A stretch of DNA of 60,309 nt. Origin: Burkholderiaceae bacterium. Its GTDB lineage: Bacteria; Pseudomonadota; Gammaproteobacteria; Burkholderiales; Burkholderiaceae_C. A program made the translations under genes and the position numbers. Numbering within the stretch: position 1 is the stretch's first letter; each line of letters begins with the position of its first letter. The stretch is from positions 1-60,309 of the forward strand of contig JBDSEG010000293.1 in the NCBI GenBank assembly GCA_039920165.1, given 5' to 3'. The notes beneath the pieces are model-generated. The model was not told where the DNA came from. It did no database searches and worked only from the letters and a program-made list of their open reading frames with translations. Positions 4,579-21,287 of the stretch are shown here, piece by piece.

Positions 4579-5793
4579 TCAATGCAGCGACCCGTGGGTG
4601 GCCTGGACGACTTGCGGAACCTCGGTGGCGGGCGGCGTGTTGCGGCTGCGGCCACAGCGAACGAGGCCGTCGATCATCACCATGCCGACGCCGGGAATAT
4701 CGCCGAGCGACACGCTTTCGAGCAGCGTCCGGCCGGCGGTGTGCTGGGCGCGGTCCATGAAGACGAGGTCGGCGGCGCGGCCGATCTCGATCAGGCCGCA
4801 GTCAAGTTTGCGGATTCGTGCGGTATTGCCGGTCGCGAAGCAGAAGACGAGTTCGGGCGCGATACCGGCCAGGCTAGACAGCATGGCGATCATGCGCAGG
4901 ATTCCGAGCGGCTGCACGCCCGAGCCGGCCGGGCCGTCGGTGCCGAGGATCACGCGGTGCGGACACTTGAGCTGCAACGCCATCTTCGCCGCCGCGATCG
5001 CGATGCGCTCGTTGCCGTTGTGGACGATCTCGATCGCCCGGCCCGAGCGTTCGCACAGCTCGCACACGTGCGCCTCGGGCAGCGCGGTGTGTCCGCCGTT
5101 GATGTGGCCAATGATGTCGGCGTCGGCTTCGAGCACGACGTCCTTGTCGATCAGTCCGGAGCCGGGAATCGACGGACCGCCGGTGTGGATCGTGCTCTGG
5201 ATGCCGTACTGCCGCGCCCACTTCACCATGGTCGCCGCCTCGGTGCCGCCCTTGACCGAACCCAGGCCGATCTCGCCGAGCAGAACGACGCCGGCCTCGG
5301 CCAGTTCGCGAAAGTCGCTCTCGACCATGCCCTTCTCGACGACCGGTGCGCCGGCCAGCACCTTCATGCCAGACGGGCGGAAATTATCGAAGGCGCGCTG
5401 CGCCGTGATGGCCAGCGCCTTCAGGCCGACGATGTCCTTAGGGCGCCCCGGCAGGTGCACTTCGCCGGCCGAGATCATGGTCGTCACGCCGCCGTGCAGG
5501 GTCGAGTCGATCCAGCCGAGCTGACTCTGGCGCGGCGTCCAGTCGCCGAATACCGGGTGCACGTGGCTGTCGATCAACCCGGGGCAGACGCATGTGCCGC
5601 GCGCATCGATCACGGTCGTCGCGCCTTCGACATCGCAATCTGCCGCCTTGCCGATCGCGACGATCCGCCCGGCGTCGATGACGAGCGTGTCGCCATCGAG
5701 GATAGGCCGGTCGATATCGCCGGACAGCATCAGCCCGATATTGCGGATCACGACCTTGCCGGAGAATGTTGATCCGGCGGTGGCGTCGGCCAT
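4579..5793 (-). CDS. Enamidase-like metal-dependent amidohydrolase (candidate 1,4,5,6-tetrahydro-6-oxonicotinate amidohydrolase)
   Basis: The ATG at 5793 (MADATAGST...) is internal to track ORF 4579..6051. The amidohydrolase HxH motif GLIDSHVHPVFGDW is present, at ~404 aa. The enamidase call rests on recalled family resemblance plus linkage to the Hnr-like gene. Amidohydrolase superfamily membership is much more certain than substrate. Confidence 0.7.
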   Translation of the reverse strand: MADATAGSTFSGKVVIRNIGLMLSGDIDRPILDGDTLVIDAGRIVAIGKAADCDVEGATTVIDARGTCVCPGLIDSHVHPVFGDWTPRQSQLGWIDSTLHGGVTTMISAGEVHLPGRPKDIVGLKALAITAQRAFDNFRPSGMKVLAGAPVVEKGMVESDFRELAEAGVVLLGEIGLGSVKGGTEAATMVKWARQYGIQSTIHTGGPSIPGSGLIDKDVVLEADADIIGHINGGHTALPEAHVCELCERSGRAIEIVHNGNERIAIAAAKMALQLKCPHRVILGTDGPAGSGVQPLGILRMIAMLSSLAGIAPELVFCFATGNTARIRKLDCGLIEIGRAADLVFMDRAQHTAGRTLLESVSLGDIPGVGMVMIDGLVRCGRSRNTPPATEVPQVVQATHGSLH

Positions 5794-5814
5794 GGCTTGC
5801 TCCTTGAAATATCC

Positions 5815-5926
5815 GGACGCGAAGGTCGCAAAGGGTCGCAAATATGCAAAGGAAGAGCCAATTTCTTCAGGCCTCGAATTCTTTGCGTCCTTCGCGTCCT
5901 TCGCGTCCGTTGCGTCTTTGCGTTCC
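5815..5926. repeat. REP-like palindromic element, copy A (inverted arrays of 9-bp unit GGWCGCRAA)
   Basis: The left arm is GGACGCGAA GGTCGCAAA G GGTCGCAAA TATGCAAAG. The right arm is CTTTGCGTC CTTCGCGTC CTTCGCGTC CGTTGCGTC TTTGCGTTC. It lies between the tetR and enamidase-like genes. Confidence 0.85.
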
Positions 5927-6673
5927 TGAAACTTCGTCGCGCGCGACCTGCGCGACGAGGGGCGATTGAATGGCAATCCCGCGCAGCACCATCGCCTCGA
6001 CGAACGCTTGCCAGTGCGCGCGTGCCGCGGGCGCTTCGAGATTCTCGCCAAGAAACGCCGACAGCGTATAGCGGTTGCTCTGGTAGAAATAGCCCGCCGC
6101 GGCGATCAGCAGGTAGAGGTCGCGCGCGCTCACGTCGGCACGAAAGAGGCGTTGCTCTACACCGCTGCGCAGCAGCCGTTCGATCACGCCGATCGCCGGC
6201 GAAGAATATTCGCGCAGCCGAGCCGCCTTCGCGGTATGCACGCCGCGGTGCAGGTTCTCGCTGTTCAGCAGGTTGATGAATTCGGGGTGACGGCGGTAGT
6301 AGTTCAGCGCGAAGCCGATCACGGCGCGCAGCGACTCGACCGGCTTGTCTTCATCGAGCCGCAAGGTCGCCTCGGCGGCGTTGAAGCGGCGGTAGATCTC
6401 CTCGAGCGCCGCGACGAAAAGGCCCTTCTTGCTGCCGAAGTAGTAATAGATCATGCGGTCGACCGAGCCCGCTGCGGTCGAGATCTTGTCGACGCTGCCG
6501 CCGCTGAAACCGTGCTCGGCGAATACCGCGATCGCGGCACGCAGGATGGCCTCGCGCGTCGCCTGCGCCGAGAGTTCGCGCGCGCCGGCGGGTCGGCGCG
6601 CCAGCGCCGCCGCAGCCGGCGCGGGTGTCGCGCGAAGGTGGGCCTTGAGTCGCTGATCCACGGCGGGGGTCAC
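5867..6673 (-). CDS. TetR/AcrR-family transcriptional regulator
   Basis: The HTH region is TREAILRAAIAVFAEHGFSGGSVDKISTAAGSVDRMIYYYFGSKKGLF. The GTG start overlaps the fpr stop (GTGA). The last ~20 codons run into repeat copy A. Confidence 0.85.
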   Translation of the reverse strand: MTPAVDQRLKAHLRATPAPAAAALARRPAGARELSAQATREAILRAAIAVFAEHGFSGGSVDKISTAAGSVDRMIYYYFGSKKGLFVAALEEIYRRFNAAEATLRLDEDKPVESLRAVIGFALNYYRRHPEFINLLNSENLHRGVHTAKAARLREYSSPAIGVIERLLRSGVEQRLFRADVSARDLYLLIAAAGYFYQSNRYTLSAFLGENLEAPAARAHWQAFVEAMVLRGIAIQSPLVAQVARDEVSGTQRRNGREGREGRKEFEA

Positions 6674-7443
6674 TGCTCGGCGAAAGCGCGCTCGATCACG
6701 AAGTCGCCCGGGGTCGACGTATTACCTTCCTTGAAGCCGCGGGTTTCAAGCATCTGCTTCAGGTCGCGCAGCATGCCCGGGCTGCCGCAGATCATCACGC
6801 GGTCGCTCGCCGGGTCGAGCGGCGGCGCGCCGAGATCGGCGCAGAGCTTGCCGGTTTCGATCAGCTCGGGGATGCGCCCCATGGTGCGGAAACTTTCGCG
6901 CGTCACGGTCGGGTAGTAGCGCAGCTTGCTCGTCACCATGTCGCCGAGAAATTCGTGCGCAGGCAGGTGCTCGATCAGCAGGTCGTGGTAGGCCAGTTCG
7001 TCGACCTGGCGCACGCCGTGCACCAGGATGATCTGCTCGTAGCGGTCGTAGGTATCGGGATCGCGGACGATGCTGAGAAACGGTGCGAGGCCGGTGCCGG
7101 TCGCCAGCATGTACAGCCGCTTGCCCGGCAGCAGGTAGTCGATCACCAGTGTGCCCGTCGGCTTGCGGCCGACGATGATCGAATCGCCGGGCTGGATATG
7201 CTGCAGCTTCGAGGTGAGCGGACCTTCGTCGACCTTGATGCTGAAGAACTCGAGGTGCTCCTCATAGTTGGCGCTGGCGATGCTGTAGGCGCGCAGCAGC
7301 GGCTTGCCGTTGACGCGCAGGCCGATCATGACAAAGTGCCCGTTCGAAAAGCGCAGCGCCGGGTCGCGGGTGGTGGTGAAGGTGAACAACCGGTCGGTCC
7401 AATGGTGCACGGTCAGCACTTTTTCTTCGTTGAAGGCGCTCAT
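6670..7443 (-). CDS. fpr: Ferredoxin--NADP(+) reductase (bacterial Fpr subclass I)
   Basis: The ATG at 7443 gives 257 aa. Motifs RAYSIAS, LEFFSIKV, GPLTS and MLATGTGLAPF are present, and the protein is near-colinear with Azotobacter-type FPR as recalled. The 404-aa track ORF is an upstream over-extension. Confidence 0.9.
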   Translation of the reverse strand: MSAFNEEKVLTVHHWTDRLFTFTTTRDPALRFSNGHFVMIGLRVNGKPLLRAYSIASANYEEHLEFFSIKVDEGPLTSKLQHIQPGDSIIVGRKPTGTLVIDYLLPGKRLYMLATGTGLAPFLSIVRDPDTYDRYEQIILVHGVRQVDELAYHDLLIEHLPAHEFLGDMVTSKLRYYPTVTRESFRTMGRIPELIETGKLCADLGAPPLDPASDRVMICGSPGMLRDLKQMLETRGFKEGNTSTPGDFVIERAFAEQ

Positions 7444-7501
7444 GGTCGGTCCGGCCGAGGCCGGCGGTTCTGGGTCGGTTTGCAGGTCGGGTAAAAACGG
7501 T

Positions 7502-7530
7502 TTGCGGCGTTTGCAATTGTGCGCTAGATT
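7502..7530 (+). promoter_or_regulatory. Candidate sigma70 promoter TTGCGG-N17-TAGATT for the hnr-like operon
   Basis: The hexamers and 17-nt spacer were read directly. It lies 81 nt upstream of the ATG at 7611. Confidence 0.3.
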
Positions 7531-7536
7531 CCGACC

Positions 7537-7556
7537 AATGTAGCGTTCACTACATT
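7537..7556. promoter_or_regulatory. 7-6-7 palindrome AATGTAG-CGTTCA-CTACATT; candidate operator (TetR?)
   Basis: Read directly. It sits immediately downstream of the candidate -10 in the divergent fpr/hnr control region. Confidence 0.35.
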
Positions 7557-7610
7557 TCCATGGAGTGATTCCCACATGGCGCAGCGTTCGAGCGGCAACC
7601 CCGGGCCTCG

Positions 7611-9218
7611 ATGACCGAACATACCAAGACCGACGGATTGCCGGGCCTGACCGCCGAGCCGACGGTGCCGGCCGAGCCGGCGGCTGGTTTTCTGGAGCGT
7701 TCGCGCCCGCGCAGCGAGCGCATGGCGAGCGACAAGATCGAGTGCAACGCCTGCCCGGTGCTGTGCCAGATCGGACCCGGCAAGTCCGGCGCCTGCGACC
7801 GTTATGCAAATGCCGACGGCGCGCTCGTGAGGGTCGATCCGGTGCTGCTGCTGCGCCGCACGCTCGAAGCCGAGGCCGGAGCACCGGCGCTCGTCGCCTT
7901 CAATGCCGATGCCGGCGCCGGCTGGGACGGCGACCTGCTGCACGCTGGCGAGCTGTTCGTCACCGGCGTCGGCGCCTCGACGACCTACCCCGACTACAAG
8001 CCCGCCCCCTTCATCGTGACGTCGATGGTCGACGGCGTCGATACCGTCACCGTCGTCACCGAAGGCATCTTCAGCTACTGCAGCCTGAAGGTGAAGATCG
8101 ACACCGACCGCTACCTCGGCGCCGAGCAGGCCAACGTGCGCTGCAAGGGCGAAGTGGTGGGCCACGTGACGACGGCCGAATACGGCTCGCAGATGCTGTC
8201 GCTCGGCGGCGTTCACCACCTCACCGGAGGAAGCAAGAAAGAGGGCCGGATCGCCTGCGAGGTCATGGAGCTGCTCGGCAACCGCCAACCGGTCGAGCTC
8301 GCGATCGACGGCGGCTCGCAGATCGTTGTGCAAGCCGGGCGCGCGCCCATCGTCGGCGGTGTTGAAGAGCAACGCATGCGCGTGGGCTGCGGCTCGGCCA
8401 CCATCGGCATCTTCGCGCGCCAGTTCCACGGCCGCGCCGACGAGGTGATCGTCGTCGACGACCACATCACCGGCGTGCTGACCGAGCACCAGGCCGGCCG
8501 CTGCCTGGATATGCGGCGCTCGGGAGTGAAGTTGCGCGGTCGCAAGTCGACGCCGGGACGCTATTTCCAGGTCGCCAATCCCGGCACCGGCTGGGGCGGC
8601 ACCGACCTGACCGATCCCATGGCCATCGTCGAGGGTTTCGATCTCGCACACGCCTGGCCCGGCATGCGCTTGCTGATGACCTCGACCACCGGCGAGCACT
8701 CGGCGTGGTATGTGCTCGACGACGCGCTGGTTCCGCACGAAGAGACGATGCCCCCGGCACTGCAAGCGGTCGTCGACCGCATCGGCGAGAACTGCGAGCC
8801 CTCGCTGTGCAGCGTGCTGTTTCTCGGCGGCGCCGGCGGCAGCCTGCGCGCCGGCGTCAGCGACAACCCGGTGCGTCTGACGCAATCGATCAAGCGCGCG
8901 CTCGTCAACGTCACCTGCGGCGGTGCGCCGGCCTATGTGTGGCCGGGCGGCGGCATCACCGTGATGGTCGACGTGATGCGAATGCCCGAGCGCAGCTTCG
9001 GCAGCGTTCCCACGCCGGCCATCGTTGCGCCGATCGAGTTCAGCATGCGGATGTCGGACTACCGCGACCTCGGCGGTCACGTCGGGCACGTGCGCACGCT
9101 GCATGACGTGCTGCGCACCGGCTCGTGGCACGCCGACGGCGCACCACGCGCCTGGCGCAGCGAAGCGATGGGGGCGGCCAATCCCTGGCCGCTCGGGCAG
9201 GCACCCTTGCTCGGCTGA
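7611..9218 (+). CDS. 6-hydroxynicotinate reductase-like iron-sulfur protein
   Basis: N-terminal Cys cluster CNACPVLCQIGPGKSGACDRYAN. About 500-535 aa. The call is from recalled annotation of this family together with UPF0280 / PF06684 / enamidase neighbours. An alternative start is the ATG at 7722 (MASDKIECN...). Confidence 0.55.
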   Translation: MTEHTKTDGLPGLTAEPTVPAEPAAGFLERSRPRSERMASDKIECNACPVLCQIGPGKSGACDRYANADGALVRVDPVLLLRRTLEAEAGAPALVAFNADAGAGWDGDLLHAGELFVTGVGASTTYPDYKPAPFIVTSMVDGVDTVTVVTEGIFSYCSLKVKIDTDRYLGAEQANVRCKGEVVGHVTTAEYGSQMLSLGGVHHLTGGSKKEGRIACEVMELLGNRQPVELAIDGGSQIVVQAGRAPIVGGVEEQRMRVGCGSATIGIFARQFHGRADEVIVVDDHITGVLTEHQAGRCLDMRRSGVKLRGRKSTPGRYFQVANPGTGWGGTDLTDPMAIVEGFDLAHAWPGMRLLMTSTTGEHSAWYVLDDALVPHEETMPPALQAVVDRIGENCEPSLCSVLFLGGAGGSLRAGVSDNPVRLTQSIKRALVNVTCGGAPAYVWPGGGITVMVDVMRMPERSFGSVPTPAIVAPIEFSMRMSDYRDLGGHVGHVRTLHDVLRTGSWHADGAPRAWRSEAMGAANPWPLGQAPLLG

Positions 9219-9227
9219 TCGAATCGC

Positions 9228-10103
9228 ATGCCCGCCGCCCGCACTCCCCTGCCCGGCGCGCGCTGGCACTTCCAGCACGGGCCGATGGATATCGTGATCG
9301 GCGCCGATGGCGATTCCGACTTCGTCGCGCGCGCGCATGAAGCCGCCTGGCGGCGTTTCGTCCCGCTGCTTGACGAACTGGTGGCCGAGCTGCCGCTGCT
9401 GCGCGCGCCGGTGCGCGGCGCTTGCACCTTGCAAGGCCCGGTGGCGCGCCGCATGTGGCGGGCTTGCGCGCCGTTCGCCGCCGGTTTCATCACGCCGATG
9501 GCCTCGGTAGCCGGTGCGGTCGCGCAGGAACTGGTCGCCTGCTATCGAGGCCCCGGCATCGATCGCGCTTTCGTCAACAACGGCGGCGATATCGCGCTGC
9601 ATCTCGCGCCGGGACAGTCGCTTCGCGTCGGGCTCTACGCCGACCTGGCGCGGCTCGATGCGCGCCAGTTGCACCACGGCATCGCGGTCGACGGCGCGAT
9701 CGACATCACCCACGCGATGCCGGTGCGCGGTGTGGCGACCAGTGGCTGGCGTGGGCGCAGCTATTCGCTCGGCGTCGCCGACAGCGTGACCGTTCTCGCG
9801 GCCACGGCGGCGATGGCCGACGCCGCGGCGACAGTGATCGCCAATGCAGTCGACGTGGCCGATGCGCGCATCGTGCGGCGACCGGCTTGCGAGCTAAAGG
9901 ACGACAGCGATCTGGGCGCCATCCCGGTCACCGTCGATGTGCCGCGGCTCGACGCCACCGCCGTTCGCGCGGCCTTGCTACGCGGCCTGGCACAGGCGCA
10001 GGGCTTGCAAGCCGAAGGACTCGTCGAAGCTTGCGCCCTCGTCTGTCAGGGCCTCATGATGCGCACCGGACCGTCCATCACCACCGAAGCCATCGCTGCA
10101 TGA
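9228..10103 (+). CDS. UPF0280-family protein (ApbE-like fold, function unknown)
   Basis: 291 aa, with segments FITPMASVAGAVAQE and RGVATSGWRGRSYSLGVADSVTVLA. It starts 10 nt after the hnr-like stop, and its stop overlaps the next start (ATGA). Confidence 0.55.
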   Translation: MPAARTPLPGARWHFQHGPMDIVIGADGDSDFVARAHEAAWRRFVPLLDELVAELPLLRAPVRGACTLQGPVARRMWRACAPFAAGFITPMASVAGAVAQELVACYRGPGIDRAFVNNGGDIALHLAPGQSLRVGLYADLARLDARQLHHGIAVDGAIDITHAMPVRGVATSGWRGRSYSLGVADSVTVLAATAAMADAAATVIANAVDVADARIVRRPACELKDDSDLGAIPVTVDVPRLDATAVRAALLRGLAQAQGLQAEGLVEACALVCQGLMMRTGPSITTEAIAA

Positions 10104-10756
10104 ACCGCACCTTGATCGAAGTCCGACGCATCCTCACCACGGTCGAGGATATCCACCACGAGTTCGGCCCCGCACCGGTGCAGCCGTTGCGGCGCGGTGC
10201 GATCGCCGTGGTGCTGACCAATCCGTACGCCGGGCTCTATGAGCCCGACATCCTGCCGATGATGCAAGCGCTCAACCCGATCGGCGCGGATCTGGCGCGC
10301 CAGCTGCACGCGGCGATGGACGTGCCGGTCGAGCGCATCGCCGGGTACGGCAAGGGCGCCATCATCGGCAGCGCCGGCGAGCTCGAGCACGGCGCGCTGT
10401 GGCATGTACCGGGCGGCTATGCGATGCGCGAGTTGCTCGGCTGGAAGGGCGCTGCGGCAGCGTATGCGCAGGGCGGCGGCGGCGAGACATCGACTGGCCA
10501 GCCCGGCAACGGCCTCGCCATCGTGCCTTCGACCAAGAAGGTCGGCCCGCCCGGCTGCGCACTCGACGTGCCGCTGACACATATCAACGCTGCCTATGTG
10601 CGCAGCCATTTCGATGCGATCGAGGTCCGCGTGCCGGGCGCGCCGGCCGCCGACGAGCTCGTCTATATCCTCGCCATGAGCTGCGGTGCGCGGATCCACG
10701 CGCGCGTCGGCGGCCTCGCGGCGGACCAGATTTCGAAGTGGGACGGTCTGCGCTGA
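10100..10756 (+). CDS. 'Amino acid synthesis' family protein (PF06684/DUF1185-like), paralogue 1
   Basis: Segments IRRILTTVEDIHHEFG...GYGKGAIIGSAGELEHGALWHVPGG...VPSTKKVG...DVPLTHINAAYVRSHFDAIEVRV...ARVGGL. It is clearly paralogous to the next gene. Confidence 0.65.
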   Translation: MNRTLIEVRRILTTVEDIHHEFGPAPVQPLRRGAIAVVLTNPYAGLYEPDILPMMQALNPIGADLARQLHAAMDVPVERIAGYGKGAIIGSAGELEHGALWHVPGGYAMRELLGWKGAAAAYAQGGGGETSTGQPGNGLAIVPSTKKVGPPGCALDVPLTHINAAYVRSHFDAIEVRVPGAPAADELVYILAMSCGARIHARVGGLAADQISKWDGLR

Positions 10757-10775: not shown

Positions 10776-11360
10776 ATGTCCGCCCAGATCCGCAAGCTCA
10801 TCGTCCAGGTCGACGAGATCCGTCGCGAGATGGACCGCCCGGTCGACCCTCCCACGCGCCGCGCGCTGGCGTGTGCCGTGATCGACAACCCCTGTGCCGG
10901 CCGCTATGTCGAGAAGCTCGACGAGCTGATGGCGATCGGCGAGGAACTCGGCGCCCTGCTCGGCGCGCGCTGCATCAAAGCACTCGGCATCGAACCTGGC
11001 CAGGCGCACAGCTACGGCAAGGCGGCGATCGTCGGCGAGGCCGGCGAAATCGAGCATGCGGCGGCCATCCTGCACCCCAAGCTCGGCGCGCCGCTGCGCG
11101 TGGCGGTCGAAAGAGGCGCGGCGCTGGTCCCATCGGCCAAGAAGCGCGGCGGCCTCGGCACCGCGATCGACGTGCCGCTTGGCCACAAGGACGCCGCCTT
11201 CGTGCGCAGCCACTTCGATGCGATGGAAGCGCGGGTATCCGATGCGCCGCGTGCCAACGAGATCGTGGTCTGCGTCGTTGTCACCGATAGCGGGCGCCCG
11301 CTGGCCCGCATCGGCGGATTGCAGGCGTCCGAGATCAAGGGCGAGGACGGCCTGCGCTGA
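10776..11360 (+). CDS. 'Amino acid synthesis' family protein (PF06684/DUF1185-like), paralogue 2
   Basis: Segments IRKLIVQVDEIRREMD...SYGKAAIVGEAGEIEHAAAILHPKLG...VPSAKKRG...DVPLGHKDAAFVRSHFDAMEARV...ARIGGL. A GGAGAA RBS lies 5 nt upstream. Confidence 0.65.
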   Translation: MSAQIRKLIVQVDEIRREMDRPVDPPTRRALACAVIDNPCAGRYVEKLDELMAIGEELGALLGARCIKALGIEPGQAHSYGKAAIVGEAGEIEHAAAILHPKLGAPLRVAVERGAALVPSAKKRGGLGTAIDVPLGHKDAAFVRSHFDAMEARVSDAPRANEIVVCVVVTDSGRPLARIGGLQASEIKGEDGLR

Positions 11361-12788: not shown

Positions 12789-12830
12789 AAGAAACTGGCT
12801 CTTGAATTTCGACGAACGAGTACACCACTC

Positions 12831-14741
12831 TTGGACCTTTCCGGCCTTCTCGTTCAGTTGCTCAACGGCCTGGCCGGGGCCTCTTCGCTCTTTCTTGTCG
12901 GCGCGGGCCTCTCGCTCATCTTCGGCGTGACGCGGATCGTCAATTTCGCGCACGGGTCGTTCTTCATGCTGGGCATCTATATCGCCTATGCGCTGGTCGA
13001 CAAACTGGGCGGCACCGGTTCCTGGTTCTGGCCCTCGCTCCTGATCGCGGCACTGGCCGTCGGCGCATTCGGCGCGCTGGTCGAGGTGACGCTTCTGCGC
13101 CGCATCTACCGCGCGCCAGAGCTCTTTCAGCTGCTCGCGACCTTCGCGCTCATGCTCGTCATCAAGGACGCCGCCTTGTGGCTGTGGGGTCCGGAAGACC
13201 TGCTTGGCCCGCGCGCGCCCGGCCTTGCCGGCGCGGTGACGATCCTCGGCCGCCGCGTTCCTGAGTACGACCTGTTCCTCATCGTCGTGGGCCCGGCCGT
13301 GCTGGGTGCACTGTGGCTGTTGCTGACCCGAACCCGCTTCGGCATCCTCGTCCGCGCCGCGACGCAGGACCGCGAGATGGTTGGAGCGCTCGGCGTCAAC
13401 CAGGCCTGGCTCTTCACCGCGGTCTTCGCGCTCGGCACGATGCTCGCCGGCCTCGGCGGCGCGCTGCAGCTGCCGCGCGAGCCGGCCAACCTCGGCCTCG
13501 ATCTGCTGACCATCGGCGATGCCTTCGTGGTGGTGGTGGTCGGCGGCATGGGATCGATCCCGGGCGCCTATGTGGCAGCGCTCCTCATTGCCGAGATCAA
13601 GGCGATCTGCATCGGCATCGGCACGGTCCAGCTCTTCGGCATCGACTTCGCCTTTTCCAAGCTGACGCTGGTGGTCGAGTTTCTCGTCATGGCGATCGTG
13701 CTGGTCGTGCGGCCCTGGGGCCTGCTCGGCAAGCCGCAGGCGGGGGTGCGCGCGCAAGGCGCGGTCGAGCAACCGCTGCGTGCCGCCGACGCGGCGCAGA
13801 AGATCGGAGGCGCGCTGCTGCTCTTCGCGCTGCTGGCCTGGCCGTTCGCCACCGCGGGATCGCCCTACATGACGGTGCTCGCGATCGACCTGCTCACCGC
13901 CGCCCTGTTCGCCGCGAGCCTGCACTTCATCATGGGGCCGGCCGGCATGCACTCGTTCGGCCACGCGGCGTATTTCGGCCTCGGCGCCTACGCGGCGGCG
14001 CTCGGCGTGCGCAGCCTCGGGCTGCCGATGGAGGTCGCGCTCGTCGCCGCACCCATCGCCTCGGCGCTCGGCGCGCTCGTCTTCGGCTGGTTCTGCGTGC
14101 GCCTCTCGGGCGTCTACTTCGCGATGCTGACGCTCGCCTTCGCGCAGATCGCCTGGTCGGTCATCTTCCAGTGGGACGACGTGACCGGCGGCAGCAACGG
14201 CCTGAACGGTGTCTGGCCGGCGCCGTGGCTGGAGGACAAGCGCAGCTACTATTTCCTCACCTTGGCCCTGGTGGTTGGCGGCATCCTGCTGCTGCGCCGT
14301 GCCCTTTTCGCCCCGTTCGGAATGGCGCTTCGCGCAGGCCGCGATTCGCCCCTGCGCGCCGATGCGATCGGCATCGATGTCAAGCGTTTGCAGTGGGCCG
14401 GCTTCGTCGTCGCCGCGGTCTTCGCGGGTCTCGCGGGCTCTCTCTACGCCTTCTCGAAAGGCAGCATCTCGCCCGACTCGGTGGGCGTCGGCCGCTCGGT
14501 CGACGGCTTGGTGATGGTGCTGCTCGGCGGCGTGCAGACGCTCGCCGGGCCGATCGTCGGAGCCGTGACGTTCACCTGGCTGCAGGACGCCGTCGCGCGC
14601 AATACCGATTACTGGCGCGCCCTGCTCGGCGCGATCATCCTGCTCATCGTCCTCGCCTTTCCCCAGGGCATCGCCGGATTCTTCGGGCCGTTGTTCTCGC
14701 GACGGAAGGTGGCGATCAAAGAGGCAGCGGAACATGCATAG
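12831..14741 (+). CDS. Fused LivH/LivM-type ABC permease (branched-chain amino acid transporter family)
   Basis: The N-terminal half is LLVQLLNGLAGASSLFLVGAGLSLIFGV (LivH-like). The C-terminal half is YMTVLAIDLLTAALFAASLHFIMGPAGMHSFGHAAYFGLGAY (LivM-like). The start is uncertain: TTG 12831 was chosen because the 12744 start lies inside repeat copy B. Confidence 0.8.
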   Translation: MDLSGLLVQLLNGLAGASSLFLVGAGLSLIFGVTRIVNFAHGSFFMLGIYIAYALVDKLGGTGSWFWPSLLIAALAVGAFGALVEVTLLRRIYRAPELFQLLATFALMLVIKDAALWLWGPEDLLGPRAPGLAGAVTILGRRVPEYDLFLIVVGPAVLGALWLLLTRTRFGILVRAATQDREMVGALGVNQAWLFTAVFALGTMLAGLGGALQLPREPANLGLDLLTIGDAFVVVVVGGMGSIPGAYVAALLIAEIKAICIGIGTVQLFGIDFAFSKLTLVVEFLVMAIVLVVRPWGLLGKPQAGVRAQGAVEQPLRAADAAQKIGGALLLFALLAWPFATAGSPYMTVLAIDLLTAALFAASLHFIMGPAGMHSFGHAAYFGLGAYAAALGVRSLGLPMEVALVAAPIASALGALVFGWFCVRLSGVYFAMLTLAFAQIAWSVIFQWDDVTGGSNGLNGVWPAPWLEDKRSYYFLTLALVVGGILLLRRALFAPFGMALRAGRDSPLRADAIGIDVKRLQWAGFVVAAVFAGLAGSLYAFSKGSISPDSVGVGRSVDGLVMVLLGGVQTLAGPIVGAVTFTWLQDAVARNTDYWRALLGAIILLIVLAFPQGIAGFFGPLFSRRKVAIKEAAEHA

Positions 14742-14774: not shown

Positions 14775-15539
14775 ATGAGCCTTCTCGAGATCATCGGCCT
14801 GACCAAAAACTTCGGCGGCGTTCGCGCCGTGGACGATGTGAGCTTCCAGGTCAAGGCCGGCGAGTTGCTGGCGTTGATCGGGCCGAACGGAGCCGGCAAG
14901 TCGACCACCTTCAACATGGTCAACGGCCAGCTGCGCGCCGATGCGGGTTCGATCCAGTTCGACGGCCACGAGCTCGTCGGCCGCGCGCCCCGCGCGATCT
15001 GGCGCCTGGGCGTCGGACGCACCTTCCAGATCGCCGAGACCTTCGCGTCGCTGACGGTGGTCGAGAACGTCCAGATGGCCCTGCTCTCCGCCGACGCGAA
15101 GCTGTATGCGATGTGGCTCCGCGCCACGGCCTACCGTCGCGCCGATGCGCTGGCGTTGCTCGAACAGGTCGGCATGGCGGCGCAGGCGGATCGGCCGTGC
15201 AGCGTGCTGGCTTACGGCGACGTGAAGCGGGTCGAGCTCGCGATCGCCCTGGCCAACGCGCCGCGTCTGCTGCTGATGGACGAGCCGACCGCCGGCATGG
15301 GCCCGGGCGAGCGGCGCGACCTGATGGGGCTGACCAAGCGACTGGTCGTCGAGCGCGGCCTGGCGGTGCTGTTCACCGAGCACAGCATGGACGTCGTCTT
15401 CGCGTATGCCGACCGCATCATCGTGCTGGCGCGCGGGCGCCTCATCGCGCAAGGCAAGCCAGCCGAGATCCGCGACCATCCGAAGGTACAGGAGGTCTAT
15501 TTCGGCAGCGGCAAGACCTTCGAGAAGGAACGGGCGTGA
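14775..15539 (+). CDS. ABC transporter ATP-binding protein (LivG-like)
   Basis: Walker A GPNGAGKST, signature-region YGDVKRVELA, Walker B LLLMDEP. Confidence 0.85.
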   Translation: MSLLEIIGLTKNFGGVRAVDDVSFQVKAGELLALIGPNGAGKSTTFNMVNGQLRADAGSIQFDGHELVGRAPRAIWRLGVGRTFQIAETFASLTVVENVQMALLSADAKLYAMWLRATAYRRADALALLEQVGMAAQADRPCSVLAYGDVKRVELAIALANAPRLLLMDEPTAGMGPGERRDLMGLTKRLVVERGLAVLFTEHSMDVVFAYADRIIVLARGRLIAQGKPAEIRDHPKVQEVYFGSGKTFEKERA

Positions 15540-15558
15540 GTACGGCGAGATTTTTCAC

Positions 15559-15641: not shown

Positions 15642-15666
15642 ATATTTCGAATTGAAAGCGCGAAGC

Positions 15667-16392
15667 ATGACCGCCCTTCTCGAAGCCAGCGGCCTCACCG
15701 CCTGGTACGGCGCGGCGCAGATCCTGTTCGGCATCGACCTGCACGTCGGCCGTGGCGAGGTGGTGGCGCTGATGGGACGCAACGGCGCCGGTAAGTCGAC
15801 CACACTGAAGACGCTGATGGGCATGCTGGAGCGGCGCGGCGGTGCGGTCGATTTCATGGGCCGCGCTATCGCCAAGCTCGATTCACATGCGATTGCCCGC
15901 CTCGGGCTCGGCTATGTGCCGGAAGACCGGCGCGTCTTCGCCGATCTGTCGGTGCTGGAGAACCTCGAGGTCGGGCGCCAGCCGCCGCGCCTCTGGCCCG
16001 ATCGGTCGGCGGCGCCGCTGTGGTCCGCCGAGGCGCTGTTCAAGCTCTTCCCCAACCTTGCCGAAATGCCCGACCGCGCTGGCGGGCGCATGAGCGGCGG
16101 CGAGCAGCAGATGCTGACGGTCGCGCGAACGCTGATGGGCAATCCCTATCTCGTGATGCTCGACGAGCCGTCGGAAGGCGTCGCACCGCTCATCGTCGAG
16201 AAAATGTCCGAGACCATCGTGGCGCTGAAGGCACAGGGTGTGAGCATCCTGTTGTCGGAACAGAACATGCATTTCGCCGAACTCGTTTCCGACCGCGCCT
16301 ATGTGCTCGAGCAGGGCCACATCCGCTGGTGGGGCACGATGGCCGAACTCGCCGCCGACGAGGCGCTGCGGCGGGCCTACCTCAGCGTCTGA
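15667..16392 (+). CDS. ABC transporter ATP-binding protein (LivF-like)
   Basis: Walker A GRNGAGKST, signature MSGGEQQML, Walker B LVMLDEP. Confidence 0.85.
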   Translation: MTALLEASGLTAWYGAAQILFGIDLHVGRGEVVALMGRNGAGKSTTLKTLMGMLERRGGAVDFMGRAIAKLDSHAIARLGLGYVPEDRRVFADLSVLENLEVGRQPPRLWPDRSAAPLWSAEALFKLFPNLAEMPDRAGGRMSGGEQQMLTVARTLMGNPYLVMLDEPSEGVAPLIVEKMSETIVALKAQGVSILLSEQNMHFAELVSDRAYVLEQGHIRWWGTMAELAADEALRRAYLSV

Positions 16393-16429
16393 AGCGCGCC
16401 TTGCACCCCAGCCACCCCGAGGAGATGCC

Positions 16430-17152
16430 ATGTCGAACCCGAACCGAAGAACCCTCCTGCTGCAATCCGCCGGCCTCGCGCTGGTCACCGCGCTGCCCGT
16501 GAGGGCGCGCGCCGCCGCCATCAAGCCCGATGCCGCGTCGGCGCTGATCGTGGTCGACGTGCAGAACTGCTTCGTCACCGGCGGCACGCTGCCGGTGAAG
16601 CAGGGCGAGGACGTGGTGCCGGTCATCAACAAGCTTGCCAAGGCATTCGAGAATATCGTCGTGACGCAGGACTGGCACACCCCCGGCCACGCCTCGTTCG
16701 CGAGCAGCCATACGGGCAAGAAGCCGTTCGAGACGACCAAGCTCGCGTACGGCACCCAGGTGCTGTGGCCCGACCACTGCGTGCAGGGAACGCCCGACGC
16801 GGCGTTGCACAAGGACCTCGACCTGCCGACCGCGCAGCTCGTCGTGCGCAAGGGCTATCACAAGAATATGGACAGCTATTCGGCTTTCGACGAGGCCGAC
16901 CACAAGACGCCAACCGGACTCTCGGGCTATCTCAAGCAGCGCGGCATCAAGCGCGTCTTCATTACCGGCCTGGCGACCGATTTCTGCGTTGCCTGGACCG
17001 CGATGGATGCGCGCCGCCTCGGCTTCGAGACCTATGTGATTGAGGATGCGACGCGTGCGATCGATCTCAACGGCTCGCTCGCCGCAGCCTGGAAGCAGAT
17101 GGCCGCCAAGGGCGTGAAGCGGATCAAAGCGGCCGATATCGCCGCCGCATAG
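16430..17152 (+). CDS. pncA: Nicotinamidase/pyrazinamidase with twin-arginine signal peptide
   Basis: The ATG at 16430 is preceded by GGAGA. The Tat-like N-terminus is MSNPNRRTLLLQSAGLALVTALPVRARAAA. Isochorismatase-fold motifs are LIVVDVQNCF, DWHTPGHASF, VRKG..., and GLATDFCV (catalytic Cys). Confidence 0.8.
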   Translation: MSNPNRRTLLLQSAGLALVTALPVRARAAAIKPDAASALIVVDVQNCFVTGGTLPVKQGEDVVPVINKLAKAFENIVVTQDWHTPGHASFASSHTGKKPFETTKLAYGTQVLWPDHCVQGTPDAALHKDLDLPTAQLVVRKGYHKNMDSYSAFDEADHKTPTGLSGYLKQRGIKRVFITGLATDFCVAWTAMDARRLGFETYVIEDATRAIDLNGSLAAAWKQMAAKGVKRIKAADIAAA

Positions 17153-17658
17153 TGCAGTCCGATGTGCTCGCCGCGGCGTGGCCCACGCAGCCGTGCTTCG
17201 AGCTGATCGTCAACGGCGTCGCGCATACGCTCGCCGCCGGTCGCGAGGCATCGCTGCTCACCGTGCTGCGCAACGACCTGGGGCTGAACGGTCCGAAATA
17301 CGGTTGCGGACTCGGTGCCTGCGGCGCGTGCATGGTGCTGGTCGACGGCATGGCGGCGCGCGCGTGCGTGATCCCGGCCGCGGGTGTGGCCGGGCGCGCA
17401 ATCACGACCCTCGAAGGACTCGGCGCCCGCACGCATCCGCACCCGGTTCAGCAAGCTTTTATCGATGCGCAGGCGGCGCAGTGCGGCTACTGCCTGAATG
17501 GGATGGTCATGGCAACGGTCGCGCTGCTGGCGCATACGCCACAGCCTACCGAGCCGCAGATCCGCTGCGCGCTGGCCGGCAACCTGTGCCGCTGCGGCAC
17601 GCATGTCGAAATCGTCGAAGCGGTGCGGCGCGCGGCCGATGCGCTGAAGGCGACATGA
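17152..17658 (+). CDS. nicA: Nicotinate dehydrogenase small subunit-like (2Fe-2S)-binding protein
   Basis: Motifs LRNDLGLNGPKYGCGLGACGACMV and AAQCGYCLNGMVM...NLCRCGTH are typical of xanthine dehydrogenase-family small subunits and closely recall P. putida NicA. GTG start at 17152, or at 17164. Confidence 0.8.
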   Translation: MQSDVLAAAWPTQPCFELIVNGVAHTLAAGREASLLTVLRNDLGLNGPKYGCGLGACGACMVLVDGMAARACVIPAAGVAGRAITTLEGLGARTHPHPVQQAFIDAQAAQCGYCLNGMVMATVALLAHTPQPTEPQIRCALAGNLCRCGTHVEIVEAVRRAADALKAT

Positions 17659-20600
17659 CGAGCCGCGGCGCAAATCTGCGCACGCGCAGCGACTTCCTCG
17701 CGGCCGACGGCGTGCTGCTCGTCGTCCGCGATCCGCCGCCCGCGGCGCCGTCGGCACGGGGCCAGCCGCCGGCTACACCGGCCGATCCGGCCGAAGGCGT
17801 CGAGGTGCTGCTCGCGGTCTGGGACGACGCCAGCGTGACCGCGCTGCACGGCCACGTCGATCTCGGCACCGGCATCGCGACCGCACTCGCGCAGTTCGTC
17901 GCCGAGGAACTCGACGTGCCGATGGCCGCGGTGCACATGGTGCTCGGCGATACCGCGCGCGCGCCGAACCAGGGGCCGACGATCGCCAGCGCCTCGATCC
18001 AGGTCCACGCCGCGCCGCTGCGGCTGGCGGCGGCGCAGGCACGGGCCTGCTTGCTGCAGATGGCGGCGCAGGCGCTGGGCCTCGCCGGCGACTCGCTCGA
18101 TGTGCGAGATGGCGCGGTGTACGCGCGCGACGGCCGCTGCGCGGCGTATGCCGATCTGCTGCGCGGGCAGCGACTGCACCTGCGGCTGGATATGGGTACG
18201 CGCGTCAAGGCGCAGCCCGAGCACCGCATCGTCGGCCGGTCGGTGCCGCGCAGCGATATCCCGGCCAAGGCATTCGGCGAACTCGTCTTCGTCCACGATA
18301 TGCGCGCGCCGGGCATGCTGCACGGTCGCGTCGTGCGCCCGCCGTATGCCGGCGCCGACCACGGCGAGTTCATCGGCAATACGCTCGAAGGCGTCGACGA
18401 GACCTCGATCGCGCACCTGCCGGGAATCCGGGCGGTCGTCGTGATCCGCGATTTCGTCGGCGTGGTGACCGAGCGGGAAGAGATCGCCGAGCAGGCCGCT
18501 TTGCTGCTTCGCGTGCGCTGGAGGCCGTGGCCTGGCATGCCGGCACTCGACGATCTCGGCAAGGCGCTGCGCGACAACCCCGCCACGCCACGCCGCCTCG
18601 TCGACGAAGGCGATGTCGATGCCGCCCTGCGCAACGGCGCATCGATCGAGCGCAGCTATACGTGGCCCTACCAGATGCACGCGAGCCTCGGCCCGTCGTG
18701 CGCGCTGGCGCAGTGGCATGGCGAGGGCGAAGCGCCCCCTGTACTCACCGTGTGGGCCGGGACCCAGAGCCCGCACGCGCTGCGTGCCGACCTCGCCAGG
18801 CTCATGGGCGTGGCCGACAGCGCGGTCGAGGTGGTCCGCATGGAAGCCGCCGGCTGCTATGGCCGCAACGGCGCCGACGACGTGGCGGCCGACGCGGCGC
18901 TGCTGTCACGGGCCATCGGCGCGCCGGTGCGGGTGCAACTCTCGCACGAGCAGGAGATGCAGTGGGAGCCCAAGGGCGCGGCGCAGTTCATGACGGTCGC
19001 CGGCGCGCTGGCCGACGACGGCGCGCTCGCGGCCTGGGACTTCTCGACCTCGTACCCGTCGAACGGCGCGCCGACCCTCGCCCTGCTGCTCACGCGGACG
19101 ATCGAGCCCGTCGCGCGCGCCTTCGAGATGGGTGACCGCAGCGCGCGCCCGCCCTACCGCGTGCCGAACCTGCGCGTCACGGTCAACGACATGGCGCCGA
19201 TCCTGCGCGCCTCGTGGCTGCGCGGCGTCTCGGCGCTGCCGAACGCATTCGCGCACGAGTCTTATGTCGACGAACTGGCGACGCAGGCCGGCGCCGATCC
19301 GCTCGCCTACCGGTTGCGCCACCTCGACGACACGCGTGCCGCCGAGCTGCTGCGCGCCACCGCCGTGCGCGCCGGCTGGGTGCCGCACAACGCGCCGCTG
19401 CAGAAGGCGTCCACCGGCGACTGGCTGCACGGCCAGGGCGTGGCACAGGCGCGCTATGTGCACAGCCAGTGGCCAGGCTTCGGCGCGGCGTGGTCGGCGT
19501 GGATCGCCGATGTCGATGTCAACAGGACGACCGGCGATGTCTACGTCAAACGCGTCGTCGTTGGCCATGACGCCGGCCTCGTCGTCAACCCGGCCGGTCT
19601 GCAGCACCAGGTGCACGGCAATGTCATCCAGACCACGAGCCGGGCGTTGCGCGAGCGGGTCGAAGTCGATGACGCGCGCGGCGGCGTCGTCGCGAACCGC
19701 GAATGGGGCAGCTACCCGATCCTCAGCTTTCGCGAGGTGCCGGTGATCGAGGTGGTCTCGATGCCGCGCCCGGGCGAGCCGCCGCTGGGCGCGGGCGAAT
19801 CGGCGTCGGTACCGGGCACTGCGGCGATCGCCAATGCGATCTTCGATGCCACCGGGGTGCGCTTTCGCGAACCACCGTTCACGCCCGAGGTGGTCCGCGC
19901 GGCGCTGAATCCGCCGACCTTCCGCGCCGATGCCGCCGCGCCGCCACCGCATCCCGCCGCAGCCGACCCCGTGTGGCCATCGCGCGGTGGCCGCTGGACG
20001 CGCGTCGCAGCGCTGCTGGCGGGCATCGTCGGCGTGGGCGCCGCACTGCTCGGCGGACGCGCCGCGATCGCGCCGGTCGCGGCCGGCCATGCATCGATCT
20101 ATACGCCCGAGACGATAGAGCGCGGCGAGCGCCTGGCCGCGCTCGGCGACTGTGCCGGCTGCCATACCGTGCCCGGCGGGGCGCGCAACGTCGGGGGCCT
20201 GCCGATCGCCACACCCTTCGGCGCCGTCTACTCGACCAACCTCACGCCGGACCCGGATACCGGCATCGGCGGGTGGTCGTTCAGCGCCTTCCAGCGAGCG
20301 ATGCGCGAAGGCATCTCGCGCGACGGGCACCACCTGTACCCGGCGTTCCCGTACCCGTCGTTCACGCGCATGACCGACTCCGACCTGACCGACTTGTATG
20401 CCTACCTCATGGCGCAGCCCGCCGTGCGTACCGACGTGCATCGCACCGCCCTGGCGTTCCCGTTCGGCGTGCGCCCGTTGATGGCGCTGTGGAACGGACT
20501 CTCCCTCGCGACCGGTGCTGCCGTTGCCACTGCGGCTGCCGTGCCGTCGGGGTCGGCGCAATGGCAGCGTGGCGAATATCTCGTCACCGGCGTGGGCCAC

Positions 20601-21287
20601 TGCGGTGCCTGCCACACCGCGCGCGATGCGCTCGGCGCCGAGCGGCCGGGCAAAGCCTTCCTGGCCGGCGCGATGGTCGACGGCTGGGAGGCGCCGGCGC
20701 TCACCTCGCAAACACGCGCACCGGTTGCATGGACCGAAGCGGCCTTCTACGACTATCTGCGCCATGGCCACAGCGCGCTGCACGGCACGGCGACCGGCCC
20801 GATGGCGACGGTGGTGCGCGAACTCGGCCCGGCGTCCGATGCCGACGTGCGCGCCATGGCGACCTACCTCGCTTCGTTCAACCCGCCACAAGGCGATGCC
20901 GACGCGGCCGCGGCGGCACAGCGCGCCGTTGCCACTGCGCAATCCCACGCGCCTTCGCCCGACGCCGCGCAGCGCATGTTCCAGACCGCCTGCGGTGCCT
21001 GCCATCACGACGGCGACGGCCCGCGCGGGCTCGGCGTCAACGTGCCGCTGGCGCTCACGAGCAAGCTGCACGCAGACCGGCCCGACAACCTGCTGCGCGT
21101 CATCCTCGACGGCGTGCGCGAACCGGCCTCGCGCGAGATCGGCTTCATGCCGGCATTCCGCGATCACCTCGAAGACCGGCAGATCGCCGCGCTCGCCGCC
21201 TATATGCGGCTGCGCTTTGCTCCCGGCCGGCCGGCGTGGAGCGATCTCGAAGGTGCGGTGACGAAGCTGCGCGCTGTACGGCATTGA
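17655..21287 (+). CDS. nicB: Nicotinate dehydrogenase large subunit-like: molybdopterin-binding domains + TM helix + three cytochrome c motifs
   Basis: The ATG at 17655 overlaps the nicA stop (ATGA), giving 1210 aa. Aldehyde oxidase/XDH-type MoCo domains are present. A hydrophobic helix WTRVAALLAGIVGVGAALLGG follows. Three CxxCH motifs occur at nt 20151 (CAGCH), 20601 (CGACH) and 20991 (CGACH). This is the same architecture as recalled for P. putida NicB. Confidence 0.8.
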   Translation: MTSRGANLRTRSDFLAADGVLLVVRDPPPAAPSARGQPPATPADPAEGVEVLLAVWDDASVTALHGHVDLGTGIATALAQFVAEELDVPMAAVHMVLGDTARAPNQGPTIASASIQVHAAPLRLAAAQARACLLQMAAQALGLAGDSLDVRDGAVYARDGRCAAYADLLRGQRLHLRLDMGTRVKAQPEHRIVGRSVPRSDIPAKAFGELVFVHDMRAPGMLHGRVVRPPYAGADHGEFIGNTLEGVDETSIAHLPGIRAVVVIRDFVGVVTEREEIAEQAALLLRVRWRPWPGMPALDDLGKALRDNPATPRRLVDEGDVDAALRNGASIERSYTWPYQMHASLGPSCALAQWHGEGEAPPVLTVWAGTQSPHALRADLARLMGVADSAVEVVRMEAAGCYGRNGADDVAADAALLSRAIGAPVRVQLSHEQEMQWEPKGAAQFMTVAGALADDGALAAWDFSTSYPSNGAPTLALLLTRTIEPVARAFEMGDRSARPPYRVPNLRVTVNDMAPILRASWLRGVSALPNAFAHESYVDELATQAGADPLAYRLRHLDDTRAAELLRATAVRAGWVPHNAPLQKASTGDWLHGQGVAQARYVHSQWPGFGAAWSAWIADVDVNRTTGDVYVKRVVVGHDAGLVVNPAGLQHQVHGNVIQTTSRALRERVEVDDARGGVVANREWGSYPILSFREVPVIEVVSMPRPGEPPLGAGESASVPGTAAIANAIFDATGVRFREPPFTPEVVRAALNPPTFRADAAAPPPHPAAADPVWPSRGGRWTRVAALLAGIVGVGAALLGGRAAIAPVAAGHASIYTPETIERGERLAALGDCAGCHTVPGGARNVGGLPIATPFGAVYSTNLTPDPDTGIGGWSFSAFQRAMREGISRDGHHLYPAFPYPSFTRMTDSDLTDLYAYLMAQPAVRTDVHRTALAFPFGVRPLMALWNGLSLATGAAVATAAAVPSGSAQWQRGEYLVTGVGHCGACHTARDALGAERPGKAFLAGAMVDGWEAPALTSQTRAPVAWTEAAFYDYLRHGHSALHGTATGPMATVVRELGPASDADVRAMATYLASFNPPQGDADAAAAAQRAVATAQSHAPSPDAAQRMFQTACGACHHDGDGPRGLGVNVPLALTSKLHADRPDNLLRVILDGVREPASREIGFMPAFRDHLEDRQIAALAAYMRLRFAPGRPAWSDLEGAVTKLRAVRH

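Follow-up and report, generated by a model that had tools for sequence, protein, structure and literature searches.

A probable nicotinamide and nicotinate catabolic cluster of the Azorhizobium type in a Burkholderiaceae bacterium

Described nicotinate clusters and the Burkholderiaceae locus

The nic cluster of Pseudomonas putida KT2440, which Jimenez and co-workers are said to have described in 2008, reportedly consists of nicAB together with nicCXDFE. For the Eubacterium barkeri pathway, the 2006 abstract of Alhapel and colleagues is said to state that genes of the first three enzymes were found in nine Proteobacteria, and the nicotinate hydroxylase of Azorhizobium, studied by Kitts in 1992, is reportedly membrane-bound and cytochrome c-linked. 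Here we analyze a locus at positions 4579-21287 of a 60,309-nt stretch of one contig (JBDSEG010000293.1) from a Burkholderiaceae bacterium; this whole stretch is the window, and all searches of the genome were confined to it. The locus combines homologues of the hydroxylase NicAB, of 6-hydroxynicotinate reductase (Hnr) and of enamidase (Ena), and is most probably an Azorhizobium-type cluster for the aerobic catabolism of nicotinamide and nicotinate.

Clusters that unite a hydroxylase, Hnr, Ena, an ABC transporter and a pair of conserved proteins with no known function were published by Shettigar et al. 2012 (PMC3511419), who listed Azorhizobium caulinodans (AZC_2790-2804), Bradyrhizobium japonicum (blr3818-3830), Rhodopseudomonas palustris HaA2 and Bradyrhizobiaceae strain SG-6C as carriers. 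The authors explicitly tied the cluster to the route through 1,4,5,6-tetrahydro-6-oxonicotinate (THON) and glutarate, reported a homologue of E. barkeri Hnr with 42% identity in a 6-chloronicotinate degrader, and described A. caulinodans and strain SG-6C as degrading nicotinate or 6-hydroxynicotinate (6-HNA); for conservation of the cluster in Proteobacteria they cite Alhapel et al. 2006 (PMC3511419). In a 2026 study of a Burkholderiales root isolate, a nicAB deletion mutant made no 6-hydroxynicotinate and its growth on nicotinate/nicotinamide was impaired (PMC13510662). Isolates with the nic cluster grow on nicotinate as sole carbon and nitrogen source, most of the 6-hydroxynicotinate made by root isolates is secreted, roots are enriched in bacteria that carry the cluster, and plant immunity is primed by 6-hydroxynicotinate (PMC13510662). 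Both nicotinate and nicotinamide, which are vitamins, occur commonly in root exudates. Our full-text searches found no open paper with experiments on Hnr, Ena, UPF0280 or PF06684 proteins from Proteobacteria, nor any on ferredoxin-NADP+ reductase (Fpr) as electron donor.

A preliminary description of the locus had mentioned physiological evidence for such a route in Azorhizobium, had known of no genetically defined version and had implied that the hybrid architecture was new. The physiology stands, as in Azorhizobium the THON route operates under aerobic conditions (PMC3511419, citing Kitts et al. 1992), but the rest does not: the same cluster type was published in 2012 (PMC3511419) and NCBI already names the genes. 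As one more instance of a cluster type already described by comparative genomics, the locus is no new pathway architecture. What the present analysis adds is modest, namely the loss of a ferredoxin domain from Hnr, evidence from Fpr and from NAD(P)H-module fusions on electron supply, accessory genes that occur in the clostridial cluster too, a predicted ApbE-like fold for UPF0280, a probable misnaming of PF06684, a conserved operator, and interchangeable hydroxylase and ring-opening modules. Beyond this, the locus is a clean and complete example in which to study the function of Hnr in aerobes, Fpr as its donor, and the roles of the ApbE-like and DUF1185 proteins.

By published description, the Azorhizobium clusters share with the window both the cluster type and the proposed chemistry, from nicotinate through 6-HNA and THON to ring opening and glutarate, and the reportedly membrane-bound, cytochrome c-linked hydroxylase fits NicAB. 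The window, for its part, is from Burkholderiales and has a TetR-family regulator, whereas two alphaproteobacterial plasmid loci carry MarR; it also has a fused permease and an in-operon nicotinamidase (PncA) with a twin-arginine translocation (Tat) signal. At the level of domain architecture, the likeness to P. putida KT2440 lies in a NicA that has two [2Fe-2S] domains and a NicB that joins molybdenum cofactor (MoCo) domains to three cytochrome c motifs, as well as in a TetR-family regulator, NicS of P. putida being reportedly of the TetR type. In contrast to P. putida, the window lacks nicC/X/D/F/E, and its 6-hydroxynicotinate is predicted to be reduced rather than oxidatively decarboxylated.

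As E. barkeri reference we used a 20-kb Logan contig (L001) that was found via the rebuilt sequence of enamidase structure 2VUN and whose Ena is 97% identical to 2VUN. It holds the entire clostridial pathway as a single gene string, in the order LysR regulator, Hnr, ApbE-like protein, Hgd, NdhF/S/L/M, transporter, Ena and PF06684, followed by B12 mutase, PrpF-type isomerase, MutL-type reactivase, Dml, Hmd and DmdAB. The window shares with it Hnr (40% identity), Ena (45%), the ApbE-like gene after hnr (35%) and PF06684 (51% and 39% for two paralogues), whereas its Hnr lacks a 2x[4Fe-4S] domain, NicAB stands in place of four-subunit NdhFSLM, fpr and a second PF06684 paralogue are present, and Hgd, Hmd, B12 mutase, Mii, Dmd and Dml are absent.

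The locus is organized as two divergent operons, fpr-tetR-ena on the minus strand and hnr-UPF0280-PF06684-PF06684-Liv-type ABC importer-Tat-pncA-nicA-nicB on the plus strand, with a 167-bp control region between fpr and hnr (7444-7610) that is common to both transcription units. Several gene junctions overlap or lie a few bases apart and therefore fit with operons. Since the window is high in GC (~68%), coding frames were picked by third-position GC (GC3). All genes named in the preliminary description were found at or near their given positions. For comparison we took the best 80 of at least 600 confirmed Hnr matches in species-representative genomes; these loci are nearly all Burkholderiales, and the genomes of Azorhizobium, Bradyrhizobium and E. 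barkeri are not among them.

In the pathway we propose, Tat-exported PncA would deamidate nicotinamide in the periplasm, the Liv-type ABC importer would bring in nicotinate, and NicAB would hydroxylate it at C6, passing electrons via three c-type haems to the respiratory chain. Hnr would convert 6-hydroxynicotinate to THON with electrons from NADPH through Fpr, its flavin possibly matured by UPF0280, and enamidase would open the ring to give 2-formylglutarate and NH3. Decarboxylation and oxidation to glutarate and then glutaryl-CoA would depend on genes encoded elsewhere, and the TetR regulator would control both divergent operons through palindromic operators between fpr and hnr. The sequence from nicotinamide through nicotinate, 6-hydroxynicotinate and THON to 2-formylglutarate, already put forward in the preliminary description, is supported by homology and synteny. 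The analysis itself shows the homologies, the domain architectures, the synteny and how the operator is conserved, whereas substrates, electron path, regulation and accessory roles are what we infer.

Reductase, enamidase and electron supply

The last gene of the minus-strand operon, ena (4579-5793, 404 aa), encodes an amidohydrolase that in a PDB search matched the E. barkeri enamidase 2VUN over its full length (residues 12-393, E = 3e-107). The runner-up chain was atrazine chlorohydrolase (1.6e-7), and dihydroorotases and isoaspartyl dipeptidases, the families that could have claimed the protein, scored ~1e-5. Because the 2VUN match lies about 100 orders of magnitude ahead of the others, we assign the protein as an enamidase rather than a generic amidohydrolase, in line with its first description. 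Its alignment with the L001 Ena is free of gaps (45% identity, E = 4e-123), and it is kept in most of the 80 loci at 75-85% identity. On the strength of this homology, it would hydrolyze the ring of THON to 2-formylglutarate and NH3.

On the plus strand, hnr (7611-9218) encodes a short form of the reductase with 535 aa, an alternative start at 7722 being possible. Although Pfam, NCBIfam and PDB searches returned no match for it, the protein shares 40% of its residues with the 499-aa, Fer4-containing Hnr of L001 in an alignment of 455 aa (E = 5e-94), which bears out the similarity that had been proposed, and NCBI calls its homologues '6-hydroxynicotinate reductase'. The N-terminus of L001 Hnr holds two CxxCxxCxxxCP motifs that make up a 2x[4Fe-4S] ferredoxin domain, of which the window protein has no counterpart, and the alignment opens only at C45 of the window and C68 of L001, from where a four-cysteine motif (C45, C48, C52, C62) is invariant in 17 diverse Hnr representatives. 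The short Hnr has thus lost the ferredoxin-type electron entry port of the clostridial form. According to the 2006 abstract of Alhapel and colleagues, the E. barkeri enzyme reportedly carries a covalent flavin, one [2Fe-2S] and two [4Fe-4S] clusters and takes electrons from reduced ferredoxin.

A candidate for the alternative donor is encoded next door. The divergent gene fpr (6670-7443, minus strand) has FAD_binding_6 and NAD_binding_1 domains in Pfam, and its top NCBIfam model is ferredoxin--NADP(+) reductase (E = 3e-49, yet under the model cut-off). It adjoins hnr in most Burkholderiales loci and stays with it on Neorhizobium and Sulfitobacter plasmids, whatever the type of hydroxylase. In addition, two distant Hnr representatives of ~970-980 aa (P0247 and P0254) place a Fer4 dicluster, Fer4_20 and Pyr_redox_2 module N-terminal to an Hnr domain. 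To judge from its domains, this module is a GltD/NfnB-like NAD(P)H-input unit and serves as a 'Rosetta stone' for the Hnr donor. The adjacency of fpr and hnr, its persistence on plasmids and the NAD(P)H-module fusions together point to NADPH via Fpr, and most likely it is through the divergently encoded Fpr that the short Hnr draws electrons from NADPH. Three further proteins, P0303, P0362 and P0381, appear as MoCo-Hnr fusions or read-through gene calls.

Hydroxylation, uptake and conservation of the cluster

The hydroxylase is encoded by nicA (17152-17658, plus strand), a small subunit with Fer2 and Fer2_2, that is, two [2Fe-2S] domains, and nicB (17655-21287, plus strand), a 1210-aa large subunit with MoCoBD_1/2 and three cytochrome c stretches. 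NicA is found at 59-79% identity in most loci. NicB has CxxCH motifs at 833, 983 and 1113 and one hydrophobic segment at 781-810, and is 49% identical over its full length to a gene annotated nicB on the Neorhizobium plasmid. A 1369-aa open reading frame (ORF) at 17178-21287 was considered as a NicA-NicB fusion and rejected, as its first ~160 codons are an Arg-rich wrong frame across nicA; NicA is read in a different frame, and the start of NicB is at 17655. Two features of NicB are worth recording. Its N-terminus (..NLRTRSDFLAADG.., residues 1-30) resembles the Tat motif of IorB-type subunits in a decayed form, and the hydrophobic segment 781-810 separates the MoCo domain from the tri-haem domain. 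This topology poses a puzzle, as it would place MoCo in the cytoplasm and the haems in the periplasm, with no obvious membrane-spanning cofactor for electron transfer.

Upstream of the hydroxylase genes on the same strand lie those for uptake and deamidation. The importer comprises a Liv-type substrate-binding protein (SBP; 11417-12625; Peripla_BP_6, E = 7e-73) with a signal-peptide-like N-terminus and 71-88% identity across loci, a conserved, fused LivH/LivM-type permease (12828-14741) with two BPD_transp_2 stretches, whose ORF opens at 12744 so that the start is uncertain, a LivG-like ATPase (14775-15539; ABC_tran and BCA_ABC_TP_C) and a LivF-like ATPase (15667-16392; ABC_tran). The nicotinamidase gene pncA (16430-17152) scores 188 bits against NF008623 (cut-off 174) and is present in about half of the loci. 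By inspection, its N-terminus (MSNPNRRTLLLQSAGLALVTALPVRARAAA, MSNPNRRTLLL...ARAAA) displays an NRRTLLL motif, a hydrophobic region and an ARA-AA site. A PncA exported by the Tat system would convert periplasmic nicotinamide to nicotinate and NH3, as judged by homology. With this, NicAB, the Tat-nicotinamidase, the Liv-type importer, Fpr and TetR are all confirmed as first listed, by Pfam, NCBIfam and sequence inspection.

The order ena-tetR-fpr / hnr-UPF0280-PF06684-PF06684-SBP-permease-ATPases-(pncA)-nicA-nicB recurs in most of the 80 loci, among them Variovorax, Polaromonas, Acidovorax, Caldimonas and chromosome 2 of Paraburkholderia xenovorans LB400, so that the co-occurrence of nicAB, hnr, ena, UPF0280 and PF06684 is seen as shared gene order. 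A Comamonadaceae plasmid from an Arabidopsis leaf has the identical order, and NCBI calls its gene '6-hydroxynicotinate reductase'. Since this synteny spans dozens of species, the genes belong together. The invariant core, formed by fpr, hnr, UPF0280 and the two PF06684 paralogues, also occurs on the alphaproteobacterial Neorhizobium and Sulfitobacter plasmids. The Hnr family itself is small, with 283 clusters at 50% identity that reach E<=1e-30, many of them fragments, yet widespread. Because at least 600 stretches with an Hnr homologue exist in species-representative genomes, the THON branch is probably a major aerobic route.

Other parts of the cluster are exchanged. In seven loci (L039, L045, L075, L076, L079, L080, L081) a xanthine dehydrogenase (XDH)-type hydroxylase of ~950 aa, in which 2Fe-2S, hammerhead and MoCo domains are fused, lies directly upstream of hnr (about 3 kb), and on Sulfitobacter plasmids (L084, 8449-12020) an XDH-type hydroxylase with a separate FAD subunit takes the same position. 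As the XDH type replaces NicAB in some loci, the reductive module pairs with at least two unrelated kinds of hydroxylase. On the plasmid of Neorhizobium sp. NCHU2750 (L082), nicAB is present, no enamidase homologue was found within 25 kb, and hyuA/hyuB (15662-19455), encoding ATP-dependent cyclic-amide hydrolases of the N-methylhydantoinase/oxoprolinase type, follow 3' of the two PF06684 genes; here the ring-opening step may have undergone non-orthologous replacement. A conserved hypothetical gene of ~470-490 aa sits by the Liv genes in L082 and in the Sulfitobacter plasmid (L084, 6158-7567), and not in the window.

The later steps have no clustered genes, as had been noted at the outset. Pfam scans of ~45 further ORFs in the window found no nicC/nicX/nicD/nicF/nicE-like gene, no Hgd/Hmd/Mgm/Mii/Dmd/Dml-like gene of the E. 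barkeri kind, and no glutaryl-CoA or aldehyde dehydrogenase or other glutarate gene. Clustering of unexplained ORFs within 10 kb of hnr in the 80 loci gave no further gene family that recurs across lineages, which argues that the steps after 2-formylglutarate are not clustered; the neighbours found are lineage-specific, such as MetH in Variovorax, a CoA-transferase with a lyase in Paraburkholderia, and extra SBPs. This fits a pathway whose later steps feed into general glutarate/glutaryl-CoA metabolism.

Several points weigh against a catabolic cluster of this kind. All functional assignments rest on homology, the uptake of nicotinate or 6-hydroxynicotinate by the Liv-type importer is presumed, and the cofactor content of Hnr is extrapolated from E. 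barkeri. An AlphaFold2 (AF2) model of Hnr, built from a 36-sequence alignment, reached a mean predicted local distance difference test score (pLDDT) of 48.8, too poor for a fold search. The usual acceptor of Fpr is a ferredoxin or flavodoxin, for which the locus contains no gene, and in the Paraburkholderia arrangement fpr is absent within +-10 kb of hnr. Finally, NicAB might feed the 2,5-dihydroxypyridine/maleamate pathway encoded by nicCXDFE elsewhere, with Hnr and Ena acting on another substrate or forming a redundant side branch. Only 60 kb of the genome are in view, NicAB-type hydroxylases were reportedly first defined beside P. putida nicCXDFE (the work of Jimenez and co-workers, 2008), and an alpha/beta hydrolase with the generic fold of NicD is encoded just 3' of nicB (22040-22939). 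We nevertheless regard this as unlikely: hnr through nicAB form one gene string in dozens of species, nicC/nicX/nicF/nicE-like genes are found neither in the window nor among the families recurrent within +-10 kb of hnr in the 80 loci, and behind nicB the Comamonadaceae plasmid copy lacks the GST/hydrolase pair that contains the alpha/beta hydrolase.

The identity of the substrate bears on a second alternative. With only 40-45% identity to characterized enzymes, a MoCo hydroxylase family that takes diverse N-heterocycles and an importer whose ligand is presumed, the Hnr, Ena and NicAB homologues might act on another N-heterocyclic carboxylate, such as picolinate, isonicotinate or a hydroxypyridine or quinoline derivative. 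The nicotinamidase gene inside the operon and the adjoining pncB speak for nicotinate, as does the same cluster type in the nicotinate/6-HNA degraders A. caulinodans and SG-6C (PMC3511419) and the loss of 6-hydroxynicotinate and poorer nicotinate growth upon nicAB deletion in a related Burkholderiales strain (PMC13510662), so that we hold a different substrate to be quite improbable.

The pncB gene, for nicotinate phosphoribosyltransferase (22929-24116, minus strand), converges on the GST/hydrolase genes, and NAD salvage therefore adjoins nicotinate catabolism. Clostridial Hnr is an oxygen-sensitive Fe-S flavoprotein. Taken with the salvage genes pncA and pncB and the secretion of most 6-hydroxynicotinate by root isolates (PMC13510662), this could be read to mean that the locus serves NAD salvage or homeostasis, or a 6-hydroxynicotinate signal, and that the Hnr/Ena branch is inactive under oxic conditions. 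That ena, hnr and the accessory genes are so strongly conserved argues for selection as a unit, however, THON-based breakdown proceeds aerobically in Azorhizobium (PMC3511419, citing Kitts et al. 1992) and isolates with the nic cluster grow on nicotinate as sole carbon and nitrogen source (PMC13510662), which leaves this interpretation hardly credible. Aerobic catabolism through THON and ring opening is the reading that we retain.

Accessory proteins, regulation and surroundings

Three conserved proteins accompany Hnr, and the likeness of their genes to those of L001 and their presence in 74/80 genome loci and three plasmids suggest that UPF0280 and both PF06684 proteins are part of the reductive module. 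The UPF0280 gene (9228-10103, plus strand; NF003322, 378 bits) follows hnr in 74/80 genome loci, and its product is 35% identical (E = 5e-24) to that of the gene directly after hnr in L001, which Pfam labels PF27030 AbpE_bact. An AF2 model of UPF0280 reached a pLDDT of 90.5. In a Foldseek search DUF375 (2O34) came first, and ranks 3-41 (~39 chains) were all ApbE/Ftp/FmnB, with E values of 3e-5 to 4e-3 and template modelling (TM) scores of 0.32-0.55; no other fold came below E 0.1. UPF0280 is thus predicted to adopt the ApbE flavin-transferase fold. In its profile, NNGGD and sVTV..ADAaAT aligned to E. coli ApbE residues 170-204 and 268-286, at non-significant scores, and every member of the UPF0280 set keeps D198 and T202. 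A role in flavin transfer or maturation is attractive because clostridial Hnr reportedly has a covalent flavin; the canonical [S/T]G[A/S][S/T] flavinylation motif is absent from window Hnr, L001 Hnr and 15 other Hnr representatives. We therefore put forward UPF0280 as a flavin-transfer or maturation factor for Hnr only as a tentative candidate.

The two PF06684 (AA_synth/DUF1185) genes follow on the plus strand. Paralogue 1 (10100-10756; Pfam E = 5e-64) has a Gly-rich insert of ~25 aa, is 39% identical to the lone PF06684 protein of L001, whose gene lies beside ena, and is kept as a distinct orthologue in alpha- and betaproteobacterial loci. Paralogue 2 (10776-11360; Pfam E = 6e-70) is closer to the L001 protein (51% identity, E = 2e-66) and matches the structure 2QTP of the Ruegeria DUF1185 protein SPO0826 (E = 8e-82). 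SPO0826 is a hexamer with a fold like that of Bacillus chorismate mutase, and its role in amino-acid metabolism was deduced from the neighbouring branched-chain-type ABC transporter genes SPO0822-0825 (PMC2954203). Because a Liv-type importer neighbours nic clusters, the 'amino acid synthesis' name of PF06684 is likely an artefact of context, and SPO0822-0825 probably code for the Liv-type importer in a nic/Hnr cluster. On the account of Alhapel and colleagues from 2006, the E. barkeri pathway reportedly reduces 2-formylglutarate and does not decarboxylate it, so a role of PF06684 shared by both pathways would fall at or before 2-formylglutarate; that PF06684 handles the enamine/imine product of ring opening is speculative.

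These parts can be joined into one reading, which we consider doubtful as a whole. UPF0280 would be a non-canonical, ApbE-like cytoplasmic enzyme that puts in or services the covalent Hnr flavin, PF06684 would process the enamine/imine or 2-formylglutarate, and Fpr would be a direct NADPH-linked reductase. The flavin site could then lack [S/T]GA[S/T], PF06684 could act through a chorismate-mutase/YjgF-like fold, and Fpr could replace the lost ferredoxin domain. If this were so, a clostridial reductase would have been made usable in aerobes, and the structurally solved families DUF375/UPF0280 and DUF1185 would gain a function.

The regulator gene between fpr and ena (5867-6673, minus strand; Pfam TetR_N and TetR_C_29) has weak RutR-like NCBIfam matches only, under cut-off, and keeps its position in most of the 80 loci at 53-84% identity; it likely encodes a repressor of both divergent operons. 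In the control region we found a perfect 20-bp palindrome, AATGTAGCGTTCACTACATT (7537-7556), with a degenerate second copy, TGGAGTGATTCCCACA (7561-7576), 22 bp downstream. The pattern matches once in the window and also in 17/100 shuffles, so alone it is weak. Between 400 bp upstream and 130 bp downstream of the start of hnr, however, TGTAG-N6-C(T/A)ACA (<=1 mismatch) was detected in 65/78 loci, nearly always upstream and Paraburkholderia included, and across loci the core is often paired 22 bp apart. The TGTAG-N6-CTACA sites have the look expected of a TetR-family operator pair and are candidates for it. Promoter and terminator scans of the control region and 3' of nicB gave nothing informative.

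At its nicB end, the locus is followed on the same strand by a GST gene (21349-22023) and the alpha/beta hydrolase gene (22040-22939), a pair that is missing from this position on the Comamonadaceae plasmid (L083). Its ena end directly abuts tRNA-Ala(CGC) (4481-4556, minus strand). Window positions 1-4556, which end at this tRNA, have a GC content of 50-56% versus ~68% and encode KfrA-like, NikA-like and 664-aa integrase-like (DUF6538) proteins; the segment has the appearance of a mobile island that inserted at the tRNA. Further along, at 37648-44007, lies a type I secretion set with a local GC of 62-63%, made up of an HlyD-like gene (37648-39216) and an ABC exporter gene (38991-40733) and adjoining a 1053-aa cadherin-like/RTX repeat protein (40846-44007). 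It is followed by a LexA-type repressor ORF (44581-46113) whose LexA DNA-binding and S24 peptidase domains are confined to residues 286-484 of 510, so that either its start is mis-set or the protein has a long N-terminal extension.

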